Sequence record: ON528715
DNA length: 39,034 nt
Reading direction: 5' to 3' (one strand)
DNA from: Shigella phage ESh1
Each line of letters opens with the position of its first letter. The first letter of the stretch is position 1. A program made the position numbers and the translations under genes. The notes below the pieces were generated by a model, which was not told the origin of the DNA, did no database searches, and saw nothing but the letters and a program-made list of their open reading frames with translations. Positions 6,650 to 39,034 of the stretch are shown here, piece by piece.

Positions 6650-6830
6650 CTTCATCCCTATAGAGTCAAGTCCTAAGGTATACCCATAAAGAGCCTCTAA
6701 TGGTCTATCCTAAGGTCTATACCTAAAGATAGGCCATCCTATCAGTGGAACCTAAAGAGGGTCTTAGAGAGGGCCTAAGGAGTTCCTAGAGGGTCCTTTA
6801 AAATATACCATAAAAATCTGAGTGACTATC
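6650..6830 (+). repeat. Right-end short-repeat array (CCTAAAG/CCTAAGG-type motifs) preceding the terminal repeat
   Basis: Repeated motifs tcctaaggtatacc, tcctaaggtctatacc, cctaaagataggcc, cctaaagagggtc, cctaaggagttcc; corresponds to the T7 right-end repeat region. Confidence 0.6.
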
Positions 6831-6990
6831 TCACAGTGTACGGACCTAAAGTTCCCCCCATAGGGGTACCAAAGGCCCAGCCAATCACCTAAAGTCAACC
6901 TTCGGTTGACCTTGAGGGTTCCCTAAGGGTTGGGGTTGGTCCCTTGGGTTTACCTTGAGTGTCTCCTTGTCCCTATCTGTTCAGTCTCCT
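6831..6990 (+). repeat. Direct terminal repeat (single collapsed copy; concatemer junction)
   Basis: Begins TCTCACAGTGTACGGACCTAAAGTTCCCC, the T7 genome-end sequence; length assumed about 160 bp by analogy, the true boundary cannot be set from one copy. Confidence 0.6.
6975..6981 (+). promoter_or_regulatory. Concatemer-junction pause site for phage RNAP (ATCTGTT)
   Basis: Exact ATCTGTT heptamer inside the terminal repeat, as in the T7 class II pause/termination signal. Confidence 0.5.
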
Positions 6991-7145
6991 AAAGTCACCT
7001 CCTAAAGTCACCTCCTAAAGTCACCTCCTAAAGTCATTCCTACCGTCTACAACCTAAAGACTACACTTAAAGACCCATCAAGTCAACGCCTATCTTAAAG
7101 TATCTCCTAAAGACCATCCTAAAGACCATCCTAAAGCCTATCCCA
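6987..7145 (+). repeat. Left-end short-repeat array incl. 13-bp tandem repeat x4 and cctaaagaccat x2
   Basis: 13-bp period tandem repeat (tcctaaagtcacc) at 6987-7038 and further CCTAAAG-containing units to about 7145. Confidence 0.7.
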
Positions 7146-7207
7146 TAGACGCCTTGTTGTTACCTATAAAGAGTTACCTTAATCATAGTCTTTAATCATT
7201 GTCTCTT

Positions 7208-7230
7208 TAATACGACTCACTATAAGGAGA
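7208..7230 (+). promoter_or_regulatory. Phage RNAP promoter phiOL (TAATACGACTCACTATAAGGAGA)
   Basis: Near-consensus 23-mer at the genetic left end. Confidence 0.8.
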
Positions 7231-7281
7231 CTACTTAAAGACCCTTAAAAGAGATTAATTAAAAATTTATCAAAAAGAGTG

Positions 7282-7310
7282 TTGACTTAAAGAGTCCTAG
7301 AGGTTACTAT
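7282..7310 (+). promoter_or_regulatory. Host sigma70 early promoter A1
   Basis: TTGACT - 17 bp - TACTAT, collinear with T7 A1. Confidence 0.75.
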
Positions 7311-7407
7311 TCATCTCGTCAACGGGACAACGGCCTAAAGCCACTCCCTGAGATACCGGGGTCAACCGGATAAGTAGGCAGCCTGTAAGCCATACGAAAA
7401 ACAGGCA

Positions 7408-7437
7408 TTGACAACACGAAGTAACATGCAGTAAGAT
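7408..7437 (+). promoter_or_regulatory. Host sigma70 early promoter A2
   Basis: TTGACA - 18 bp - TAAGAT, near-identical to T7 A2. Confidence 0.8.
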
Positions 7438-7522
7438 ACACAACGTAGCGTCAACCGGACGCACACAAGGTGTCTTCTAGGTGACTTAAGCGCACCACGG
7501 CACATAAGGTGAAACAAAACGG

Positions 7523-7551
7523 TTGACAACACGAAGTAAACACGGTACGAT
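7523..7551 (+). promoter_or_regulatory. Host sigma70 early promoter A3
   Basis: TTGACA - 17 bp - TACGAT, near-identical to T7 A3. Confidence 0.8.
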
Positions 7552-7669
7552 GTACCACATGCAGTAAGGGTGTAGGGATAGGAACCGAGAAACCTGCCCG
7601 TGACCCGCCAAGGATAAGGCACTAGCTATGAGTCGAATTCGGTCACTCATCGCATAAAAGAATAACAGG

Positions 7670-7698
7670 TTGACAGCCTCCTTTAAAAGCTGTAAGAT
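7670..7698 (+). promoter_or_regulatory. Additional sigma70-type early promoter (fourth, not in T7 as recalled)
   Basis: TTGACA - 17 bp - TAAGAT followed by gtaccac as in A3; lies in about 185 bp of extra sequence between A3 and gene 0.3. Confidence 0.6.
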
Positions 7699-7814
7699 GT
7701 ACCACGAAATGACGGAACAGTGAGGCGCAACACTGAAACGCGCTAGGGTCTAACGAAACCTGACCGACATGCTCTTTAACAATCTGGTAAATAGCTCTTG
7801 AGTGCACGACTAGC

Positions 7815-7858
7815 GGATAACTCAAGGGTATCGCAAGGTGCCCTTTATGATATTCACT
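7815..7858 (+). promoter_or_regulatory. RNase III site R0.3
   Basis: AACTCAAGGGTATCGCAAGGTGCCCTTTATGATATTCAC, matching the T7 R0.3 region. Confidence 0.6.
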
Positions 7859-7882
7859 AACAACTGCACGAGGTAACACAAG

Positions 7883-8248
7883 ATGGCTATGTCTAACATG
7901 ACTTACAACAACGTTTTCGACCACGCTTATGAAATGCTGAAAGAAAACATCCGTTATGATGACATCCGCGACACTGATGACCTGCATGATGCTGTTCATA
8001 TGGCTGCCGATAGCGCCGTTCCGCACTATTACAGCGACATTTTCAGCGTAATGGCAAGCGAGGGCATTGACCTTGAGTTCGAGGACTCTGGTCTTATGCC
8101 GGACACCAAGGACGTAATCCGTATCCTGCAAGCTCGCATCTATGAGCAACTCACGATTGACCTCTGGGAAGACGCTGAGGACTTACTTAACGAGTACCTT
8201 GAGGACGTCGAGGAAGAAGAGGAAGACTACGAAGAGGGCGAAGAGTAA
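7883..8248 (+). CDS. ocr: Ocr, DNA-mimic anti-restriction protein (gp0.3)
   Basis: [36 protein letters not shown]... with acidic C-terminus; matches T7 Ocr with a slightly longer acidic tail. Confidence 0.92.
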
Positions 8249-36476: not shown

Positions 36477-39034
36477 ATGGATAAGTACGATAAGAACGTA
36501 CCAAGTGATTATGATGGTCTGTTCCAAAAGGCGGCTGATGCCAACGGGGTCTCTTATGACCTTTTACGTAAAGTCGCTTGGACAGAATCACGATTTGTGC
36601 CTACAGCAAAATCTAAGACTGGACCATTAGGCATGATGCAATTTACCAAGGCAACCGCTAAGGCCCTAGGTCTGCGAGTTACCGATGGTCCAGACGATGA
36701 CCGACTGAATCCTGAGTTAGCCATCAATGCTGCCGCTAAGCACCTCGCAGGTCTGGTAGGGAAGTTTGATGGTGATGAACTTAAAGCTGCCCTTGCGTAC
36801 AACCAAGGTGAGGGTAGATTGGGTAATCCACAACTTGAGGCGTACTCCAAGGGAGACTTTGCGTCCATCTCTGATGAAGGACGTAATTACCTTCGTAATC
36901 TTCTAGATGTGGCTAAGTCTCCTATGGCTGGACAGTTGGAAGCATTCGGTGGTATCACCCCAAAGGGTAAAGGCATTCCTGCTGAGGTAGGACTTGCTGG
37001 TATTGGGCATAAGCAGAAGGTTACGCAGGAACTTCCTGAGTCCACAAGTTTTGACGTTAAGGGTATTGAACAGGAGGCTCCGGCGAAACCATTCGCCAAG
37101 GACTTTTGGGAGACCCATGGAGAAACACTTGATGAGTACAATAAGCGTTCAACATTCTTCGGATTTAAAAATGCTGCCGAAGCTGAACTCTCCAACTCAG
37201 TCGCTGGTATGGCCTTCCGTGCTGGTCGCCTCGATAATGGTTTTGATGTGTTTAAAGACACCATTACGCCGACTCGCTGGAACTCTCACATCTGGACTCC
37301 AGAAGAGTTAGAGAAGATTAGAACCGAAGTTAAGAACCCTGCGTACATCAACGTGGTAACTGGTGGTTCCCCTGAGAATCTTGACGACCTCATTAAGCTG
37401 GCTAACGAGAACTTTGAGAATGACTCACGCGCTGCTGAGGCTGGTCTTGGGGCTAAGCTAAGTGCTGGCGTTATCGGTGCTGGTGTGGACCCTCTCAGCT
37501 ATGTACCTATGGTTGGGGTTACTGGTAAGGGCTTCAAGTTAATCAACAAGTCTCTTGTGGTTGGTGCTGAGAGTGCTGCCCTTAACGTGGCTTCGGAAGG
37601 ACTACGCACCTCCGTTGCTGGTGGTGATTCCGACTATGCTGGAGCGGCTCTAGGAGGCTTTGTATTTGGTGCAGGAATGTCTGCACTCAGTGACGCTATC
37701 GCCGCTGGTCTGAAACGGAATAAGCCAGAAGCTGAGTTTGACAATGAGTTTATTGGTACTATGATGCGAATGGAAGCACGCGAGACTGCACGTAACGCCA
37801 ACTCTACGGACCTCTCTCGGATGAATACAGATAACATGAAGTTTGATAGTGAGCATAACGGTATTCCATATGCAGACCTTCCTACTGAGAAGGGTGCTGT
37901 GGTTCTCCATGATGGCTCTGTACTTAGTGCTAGTAACCCAATCAATCCTAAGACTCTCAAAGAGTTCTCCGAGGTTGACCCTGAGAAAGCTGCACGAGGC
38001 ATCAAACTAGCAGGATTCACTGAGATTGGGTTGAAGACCTTAGGCTCAGACGACGCCGATATTCGACGTGTGGCTATTGACCTAGTGCGGTCTCCTACCG
38101 GAATGCAATCAGGTTCCTCAGGTAAGTATGGTTCAACAGCTTCGGATATTTTCGAGAAACTTCGTGGCACTGACCAGCGTACTTACAACGACTTGTATAA
38201 GGCGATGTCTGACGCGATGAAAGACCCTGAGTTCTCCACTGGTGGAGCTAAGATGTCTCGAGAAGAAGCTCGTTACACTATCGAGCGTCGAGTGGCCTTG
38301 GCTATTGAGAACCCTGAGCTACAGAAGGCTTTAACTCCTAACGAGCGAATCGTAATGGACATCGTTAAGAGACATTATGACACCAAGCGTGAACTCATGG
38401 AGAACCCTGCGGTCTTTGGTAATACCAAGGCTGTGAGTATCTTCCCAGAGAGTCGCCACAAGGGTACATATGTTCCACATGTGTACGACAAGTACGCTAA
38501 GGCACTTAAGATTCAACGTTATGGCGCTGAGGGCTTACAGGAAGGTATCGCTCGGTCGTGGATGTGTAGCTACGATTTGAGACCTGCGGTAAAGGCCCGT
38601 ATTGACGAAGCACTTAAAGAGATGCACGGTGTAGAGGAAGTCACACATGATATGGTGTATAAGTACGCTATGGATAAAGCATATGGTATCTCCCACTCAG
38701 ACAGGTTCACTAATAGCTCCATCATTGAGGAGAACATTGAGGGTCTTGTCGGTATTGAGAATAACTCATTCCTTGAAGCACGAAACCTCTTTGACTCCGA
38801 CTTAGCAATCACCATGCCAGATGGCGAGCAATTCTCTGTGAACGATTTGAGGGACTTTAGCATGTTCCGTATCATGCCAGCGTATGACCGCCGCATAAAT
38901 GGTGACATCGCCATCATGGGGTCTACTGGTAAAACCACTAAGGAACTTAAGGATGAGATTTTGGCTCTTAAGGCGAAAGCCGAGGGTGACGGTAAGAAGA
39001 CTGGCGAGGTTCATGCTCTAATGGATACCGTTAA
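36477..39034 (+). CDS. 16: Internal virion protein D (gp16), N-terminal portion with lytic transglycosylase motif; 3' partial, continues at 2..1399
   Basis: MDKYDKNVPSDYDGLFQKAADANGVSYDLLRKVAWTESRFVPTAKSKTGPLGMMQF..; open to window end; the two parts total 3957 nt (1318 codons plus stop), the size of T7 gp16. Confidence 0.92.
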   Translation, partial: MDKYDKNVPSDYDGLFQKAADANGVSYDLLRKVAWTESRFVPTAKSKTGPLGMMQFTKATAKALGLRVTDGPDDDRLNPELAINAAAKHLAGLVGKFDGDELKAALAYNQGEGRLGNPQLEAYSKGDFASISDEGRNYLRNLLDVAKSPMAGQLEAFGGITPKGKGIPAEVGLAGIGHKQKVTQELPESTSFDVKGIEQEAPAKPFAKDFWETHGETLDEYNKRSTFFGFKNAAEAELSNSVAGMAFRAGRLDNGFDVFKDTITPTRWNSHIWTPEELEKIRTEVKNPAYINVVTGGSPENLDDLIKLANENFENDSRAAEAGLGAKLSAGVIGAGVDPLSYVPMVGVTGKGFKLINKSLVVGAESAALNVASEGLRTSVAGGDSDYAGAALGGFVFGAGMSALSDAIAAGLKRNKPEAEFDNEFIGTMMRMEARETARNANSTDLSRMNTDNMKFDSEHNGIPYADLPTEKGAVVLHDGSVLSASNPINPKTLKEFSEVDPEKAARGIKLAGFTEIGLKTLGSDDADIRRVAIDLVRSPTGMQSGSSGKYGSTASDIFEKLRGTDQRTYNDLYKAMSDAMKDPEFSTGGAKMSREEARYTIERRVALAIENPELQKALTPNERIVMDIVKRHYDTKRELMENPAVFGNTKAVSIFPESRHKGTYVPHVYDKYAKALKIQRYGAEGLQEGIARSWMCSYDLRPAVKARIDEALKEMHGVEEVTHDMVYKYAMDKAYGISHSDRFTNSSIIEENIEGLVGIENNSFLEARNLFDSDLAITMPDGEQFSVNDLRDFSMFRIMPAYDRRINGDIAIMGSTGKTTKELKDEILALKAKAEGDGKKTGEVHALMDTV

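Follow-up and report, generated by a model that had tools for sequence, protein, structure and literature searches.

The stretch of DNA analysed here (39,034 nucleotides of Shigella phage ESh1, record ON528715; hereafter the window) carries the circularly permuted genome of a T7-like phage of the genus Teseptimavirus. Between genes 1 and 8, this genome shares 93% identity with T7 and 96% with Shigella phage ESh3, and a T7-type left end (TCTCACAGTGTACGG...) starts at window position 6829. Short tandem repeats of the CCTAAAG type at 6990-7035 and 7100-7140 (e.g. TCACCTCCTAAAG, about three and a half copies) are typical of T7 left-end repeat arrays. The leading genome end is the early control region, where homologs of the host promoters A1, A2 and A3 are accompanied by a further sigma70-type promoter core within a 147-bp non-coding cassette (Table 1). 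This promoter cluster serves gene 0.3 first, the ATG of which is at 7883. In the T7 reference, A1, A2 and A3 are the only members of the cluster; they initiate at 498, 626 and 750, and gene 0.3 lies at 925. If the A3 start of T7 is taken as a guide, the A3 homolog would initiate at about 7559.

Table 1. Features of the early region of ESh1, in window coordinates.
Feature	Positions	Strand	Basis or remark
A1 homolog, TTGACT-17-TACTAT	7282-7310	+	Promoter scan; aligns with T7/T3 A1 context
A2 homolog, TTGACA-18-TAAGAT	7408-7437	+	Promoter scan; flanks near-identical to T7 A2
A3 homolog, TTGACA-17-TACGAT	7523-7551	+	Promoter scan, alignment
Direct repeat GATGTACCAC, left copy	7549-7558	+	End of A3 -10 through start region
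Cassette (conserved upstream block and predicted fourth promoter), non-coding, 147 bp	7559-7705	+	Alignment gap in T7, T3, phiSG-JL2 and ESh3
Upstream block with four predicted helices	7568-7653	+	RNAalifold consensus of 24 distinct sequences
Predicted helix 1	7568-7570/7604-7606		
Predicted helix 2	7575-7582/7593-7599		
Predicted helix 3	7607-7609/7618-7620		
Predicted helix 4	7625-7636/7643-7653		
Fourth sigma70-type promoter core	7670-7698	+	-35 TTGACA at 7670-7675, 17-bp spacer, -10 TAAGAT at 7693-7698
Inverted repeat ACAGC/GCTGT across promoter spacer	7673-7693	+	Inner part of predicted helix 5
Direct repeat GATGTACCAC, right copy	7696-7705	+	End of fourth -10 through start region
Leader hairpin, invariant 9-nt loop ACACUGAAA	7725-7743	+	20 nt downstream of predicted fourth start
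BoxA-consensus GCTCTTTAACA	7771-7781	+	Perfect match; invariant in all aligned genera
R0.3-type RNase III hairpin	7812-7860	+	By homology; aligns with T3 annotated stem_loop R0.3, positions 822-875
Gene 0.3 (ocr homolog)	7883-8248	+	ORF list; Ocr or ocr-like anti-restriction in relatives' annotation

The initial annotation had reported an element TTGACA-17-TAAGAT beside the A1-A3 homologs, and both the sequence and the promoter scans agree with it, placing the element downstream of these homologs and upstream of gene 0.3/ocr, on the same strand as A2 and A3. Its -35 matches TTGACA at six of six positions and its -10 is a four-of-six match; the 17-bp spacer, which is of optimal length, and the A at position 2 and T at position 6 of the -10 are those of a sigma70 promoter. 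The -10 is identical to that of A2, the start region is identical to that of A3, and A-rich DNA (ATAAAAGAATAA) lies upstream, as it does at A1-A3. Initiation is predicted at about 7704-7706. A set of 24 distinct homologs shows no change in the -35; the -10 reads TAAGAT, TAAGCT or TAATAT, with variation confined to its fourth and fifth positions; the Berlinvirus and Kayfunavirus copies carry the weaker TAAGCT (3/6).

Hexamer match quality by itself is at chance level genome-wide: both strands of the 39-kb window hold seven matches of at least 10/12, against 6.4 +/- 2.4 in first-order Markov shuffles. The expected number of 10/12 matches on one strand of the 325-nt interval between A3 and gene 0.3 is about 0.03. 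Conservation of the hexamers cannot alone single out promoter function either, since the whole cassette is nearly invariant. The case for a promoter is built on the clustering with A2 and A3, the key positions conserved in the 24 homologs and a leader placement like that of T7 A3. Elsewhere in the window, further sigma70-like matches of 10-11/12 occur at 37738 (+; TTGACA-16-TATGAT), 35825 (-), 3300 (-) and 4864 (+), a number expected by chance.

The predicted leader of the fourth promoter runs for 177 nt to the ocr ATG, compared with 175 nt for T7 A3, and its start precedes the conserved hairpin, the BoxA and the R0.3 site in the same placement as T7 A3. Like the early clusters of the T7 group, the element points rightward at the leading genome end, upstream of R0.3 and of the first early gene; T7 and T3, with A1-A3, have no positional homolog, and the homolog is instead the fourth promoter of phage BA14. 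The BoxA match to the consensus GYTCTTTAANA (PMC5725501) suggests that early transcripts may undergo Nus-factor antitermination. The surrounding block GCTCTTTAACAAT.TGG (7771-7787) is invariant in all aligned phages, which represent five genera and include T7 and T3; for T7, this may have been noted already. At the hairpin, compensatory changes affect four of the five stem pairs across ten phages including T7 and T3, and its location upstream of BoxA is boxB-like, as in rrn leaders. Single-sequence folding of the downstream leader was not significant (z = -0.97).

Transcripts from about 7704-7706 would thus carry a T7 A3-like leader with hairpin, BoxA and R0.3, followed by ocr, 0.7 and gene 1, which would make the element one more host-polymerase entry point into the early operon. 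Counted from the left end, its -35 falls at genome position 842 and its start at about 877. Roughly 850 bp of T7 DNA enter the cell without transcription (PMC8954989), and an element at the edge of this segment may be available only after A1-A3 fire; by this analogy the predicted fourth promoter would boost early transcription, not trigger entry. Its firing in vivo, its strength and any effect on the amount or timing of ocr expression are properties that we infer. A shift in the timing of ocr and 0.7, as first proposed for this locus, would be plausible.

Relative to T7, the interval between A3 and gene 0.3 had been described as about 360 bp long instead of about 175 bp, with a leader expanded by about 185 bp. 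The T7 value of 175 nt is correct; the ESh1 value had been measured from the A3 -35 hexamer and becomes about 325 nt when taken from the A3 start near 7559, so that the expansion amounts to 147-150 bp, not ~185 bp. A ten-phage alignment has a clean gap over precisely the cassette in the four phages listed in Table 1, which confirms that T7 is without the element.

The cassette contains no ORF of at least 20 aa on the + strand, and minus-strand ORFs that overlap it extend into non-conserved regions. Within predicted helix 4 is a micro-ORF of nine codons (7628-7657, ATG/GTG start, MSRIRSLIA) with AAGG ahead of it; the four variable sites of this ORF carry no coding signal. An intrinsic terminator or attenuator was considered and rejected: neither strand of 7559-7705 has a terminator-like site, and the hairpin at 7625-7653 is followed by AUAAAAGAAUAA. 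On the minus strand, AATTCGACTCA at 7629-7639 matches 10 of 11 positions of the binding half of the phage RNA polymerase promoter (AATACGACTCA, phiOL, 7209-7219); it comes without the initiation half TATAGGGAGA and is thus probably a chance match.

The initial annotation had interpreted the element as a duplicate of an A2/A3-type promoter, and several short similarities fit a local tandem duplication of A3 or A2 in the phage's own lineage. Over 38 nt, A3 and the fourth promoter are direct repeats of each other (71% identity, spacing 147 bp), and each copy ends in the decamer GATGTACCAC, which confirms the resemblance to A3 at the -10 and downstream. The 12-mer ACATGCAGTAAG of the A2 spacer/-10 region is found again at the left edge of the cassette, AACAGG precedes the -35 both in A2 and in the fourth promoter, and a further short motif, GAAACCTGNCCG, is common to the cassette and the leader. 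Nevertheless, only the two hexamers and the start region resemble A3, and the spacers are unrelated; a recent tandem duplication of A3 was rejected on this ground, as the likeness does not run through spacer and flanks. For the ~105-bp upstream block, only motifs of 10-12 nt match elsewhere in the early region, and when the cassette is aligned by Smith-Waterman to the intervals A1-A2 and A2-A3 and to the leader, the scores are within the range of shuffled sequences. The block finds its counterpart in no neighbouring interval but in three other genera, where the cassette is 93-100% identical while the A1-A3 regions of the same phages are 20-65% identical. This disparity indicates that the cassette was acquired or exchanged as a unit. 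We regard an origin by local duplication as very unlikely; to judge from these comparisons, a recent event within the lineage is largely refuted, and any duplication would belong to the deep past or to another lineage.

Among 50,697 phage records, the cassette was found in 44, always with at least 93% identity; diverged copies were not found, and no T7 or T3 record was among the matches. Escherichia phages account for 30 of 45 matching records. Genus assignment was checked for representative carriers and yielded four genera: Teseptimavirus (UFV01), Berlinvirus (BA14 and pO103), Kayfunavirus (ST31, IMEP24, BDX03P1, CHX131, yong1 and Baskent_phicoli_1) and Przondovirus (K35PH164C3, the sole Klebsiella phage among the 44 carriers). 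In an 18-locus alignment, identity to the window is 87-100% across 7570-7690 and falls to 20-65% in the flanks of the other genera. The cassette is also the best-matching 120-nt window of the whole genome against both BA14 (97.5%; median 69%, next best 93%) and ST31 (97.5%; median 68%, next best 85%). Carriers are nonetheless in the minority: of 301 records with a match to the early region, only 31 reach a query coverage of 80% or more, and ESh3, the nearest relative over the whole genome (96%), is without the cassette.

Outside phage records, the cassette had no match in 5,426 E. coli genomes or 72,556 plasmids, and a host or vector origin was rejected accordingly. A scan of 185,579 species genomes with 18-mers returned 11 matches in unrelated taxa, by our estimate roughly the number expected by chance in about 6 x 10^11 bases. 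A metagenome scan for diverged copies recovered five true copies and one chance match; as all five are near-identical, they add little covariation power. In all 14 IMG/VR loci, the upstream block is found together with the promoter core.

Rearranged relatives suggest how the cassette moves. In the Teseptimavirus PDP351P2, at about 690-740, the sequence upstream of A2 (...CGAAAAACAGG) is joined directly to the fourth-promoter core (TTGACAGCCTCC...) with the junction AACAGG|TTGACA; the deletion of about 260 bp has removed the A2 core, A3 and the upstream block, leaving only two host promoters. Retention of the fourth core despite the loss of A2 and A3 fits a working promoter, as far as sequence can tell. 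The phiSG-JL2 arrangement GGTACGATGTACCAC|GAAATGACGGAACAGTGAGG joins the A3 core to the leader that is found after the fourth promoter, and recombination between the GATGTACCAC repeats would yield just this product, converting a four-promoter genome into a three-promoter one. Klebsiella phage K35PH164C3 resembles Berlinvirus and Przondovirus to the left of the cassette (70-97%) and is 97-100% identical to Teseptimavirus UFV01 from the cassette rightward to BoxA. We propose that recombination at short motifs common to all the early promoters may add the cassette to a genome, remove it or pass it between genera. The motifs in question are GATGTACCAC, in the -10/start region, and AACAGG..TTGACA, at the -35. 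Such a mechanism would explain the patchy distribution, the cross-genus near-identity and the two-, three- and four-promoter variants. The patchiness and near-identity, together with the sharp motif borders and mosaic junctions, speak for horizontal exchange that was both recent and repeated, and accord poorly with ancient vertical descent.

Three observations could be taken to mean that the hexamers are a non-functional by-product, with the cassette as a neutral passenger or as shared homology that recombination during co-infection keeps homogenised: the chance-level rate of such matches genome-wide, the absence of the cassette from most relatives and the mosaic junction in K35PH164C3. We give this reading little credence. 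The promoter sits exactly where T7 A3 does relative to the leader, its critical positions are kept in all 24 variants with compensatory substitutions at paired positions, the PDP351P2 deletion spares its core, and a neutral passenger is unlikely to be the most conserved segment both between and within genera. The proposal of a fourth early promoter stands as plausible in view of the consensus -35, the 17-bp spacer, the A2-type -10, the A3-like leader, the BA14 annotation and the PDP351P2 variant. We consider it likely that the element is a fourth rightward host sigma70 early promoter, carried on a discrete, horizontally exchanged 147-bp cassette.

One feature sits less easily with a promoter as the only function: the ~105 bp upstream of the -35 are as conserved as the core, and a core promoter needs no such block. 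The cassette might instead be selected for encoding a structured RNA, ~130 nt long and part of the leader of transcripts from A1-A3. In cis, such an RNA could influence the elongating polymerase or the fate of the mRNA; alternatively, it could work in trans once released by RNase III. The promoter-like hexamers would then lie inside the last hairpin as a secondary or incidental feature, and the reading is compatible with an active promoter. RNAalifold predicts five helices in which 99.9% of paired cells (all but one) are standard pairs, compared with 27-38% when partners are slid by 1-3 columns. There are 25 variable columns, six of which form three compensatory pairs, each extending an invariant helix: 7568/7606 changes from G-C to U-A in all Kayfunavirus copies, 7628/7650 occurs as A-U, G-U and G-C, and 7677/7689, in the promoter spacer, changes from C-G to U-A (T-A) in the Berlinvirus and Przondovirus copies. 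Only 5 of 300 pairs of variable columns are always pairable (six with the gapped 7677/7689), and those of them that are stacked are precisely these three.

Further points speak for an RNA. Helices 1-4 recur in the minimum-energy fold of the single sequence, in which covariation plays no part; the G-U intermediate at 7628/7650 favours an RNA over a symmetric DNA site; and the constant association of block and core in the IMG/VR loci points the same way, as does the rank of the cassette as the most conserved stretch of the genome. Against this, the single-sequence fold is no more stable than shuffles (z = -1.42), and an Rfam 15 scan of 7150-8000 with E up to 10 gave only chance-level miRNA/snoRNA matches. 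The compensatory pairs amount to roughly one evolutionary event each and come from the alignment that had itself yielded the consensus structure, the near-identity is also accounted for by recent horizontal transfer, and the cassette is dispensable, given that PDP351P2 is without the whole upstream block and most relatives are without the cassette. On balance, a leader RNA as the selected function is a possibility that we hold at rather low probability. A more specific version, in which the cassette encodes a ~130-nt leader RNA of five helices (7568-7700), with the promoter in its last hairpin, and spreads for a host-specific advantage, appears unlikely to us. If true, such an RNA would have spread through four or more genera of T7-like phages that mostly infect E. 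coli, may modify or protect early transcription complexes or act as a decoy for a host factor or defence system, and would account for the cassette being the most conserved segment of these genomes.

The closest known counterpart to the predicted fourth promoter is in BA14. Four features are labelled 'host RNAP promoter' in its records (EU734171 and NC_011040), and the last of them (834-870), itself an annotated prediction, is the same element. The BA14 cassette is 96-97.5% identical and occupies the same place, preceded by the third host promoter and followed by the leader hairpin, BoxA and gene 0.3. BA14 is, however, a Berlinvirus with a genome ~70% identical to that of ESh1, its -10 is TAAGCT, the compensating changes in its spacer are C to T and G to A, and its gene 0.3 is of the SAM hydrolase type rather than ocr. 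The T7 promoters A1-A3 (class I) are alike in being rightward sigma70 promoters within the first ~900 bp, with a near-consensus -35, a 17-18 bp spacer, A-rich upstream DNA and the same leader. T7 differs in having three promoters, not four, and no counterpart of the ~105-bp upstream block; the spacer of the fourth promoter, with its inverted repeat, is unrelated to those of A1-A3. The E. coli rrn P1/P2 promoters with their boxB-boxA leader, i.e. tandem sigma70 promoters of a long transcript with hairpin and BoxA, offer a functional analogy only, as sequence homology does not extend beyond BoxA.

A survey of Yersinia podoviruses found that T7-like left ends carry 3-6 host promoters (PMC5923468), and the series of two in PDP351P2, three in T7 and four in ESh1 fits this theme of variation. 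Together with the BA14 annotation, the survey makes a fourth early promoter a known kind of variation. It contains no description of the cassette or of its cross-genus conservation, and our literature search found no paper describing the cassette, its conservation or a mapped start. What would go beyond the existing record is only the conservation of the cassette across genera and the possible leader RNA.

Early-promoter copy number thus appears to vary between two, three and four in close relatives of T7 by recombination at common short sequences, and in ESh1 the predicted fourth promoter is inserted such that the A3 leader is reused exactly. An extra host-polymerase entry ahead of ocr could aid escape from type I restriction and the speed of transcription-driven genome entry. 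Less expected is a non-coding cassette that is 93-100% identical in phages otherwise ~70% identical and that marks an inter-genus mosaic junction. It offers a concrete example of a common linker for early-region exchange between T7-like genera, and is a candidate for an undescribed leader RNA.

Other non-coding insertions were observed in the same part of the genome. ESh3 carries, just after the A3 start and at the exact cassette site, a short unrelated insert of ~20 nt (CAGCTACCACAGG...GTAGCAC), and phiSG-JL2 has, at about 790-915, a different lineage-specific insertion of ~125 nt, located downstream of the leader hairpin and ahead of BoxA (alignment columns 342-465). The early leader seems particularly prone to gaining such non-coding inserts.
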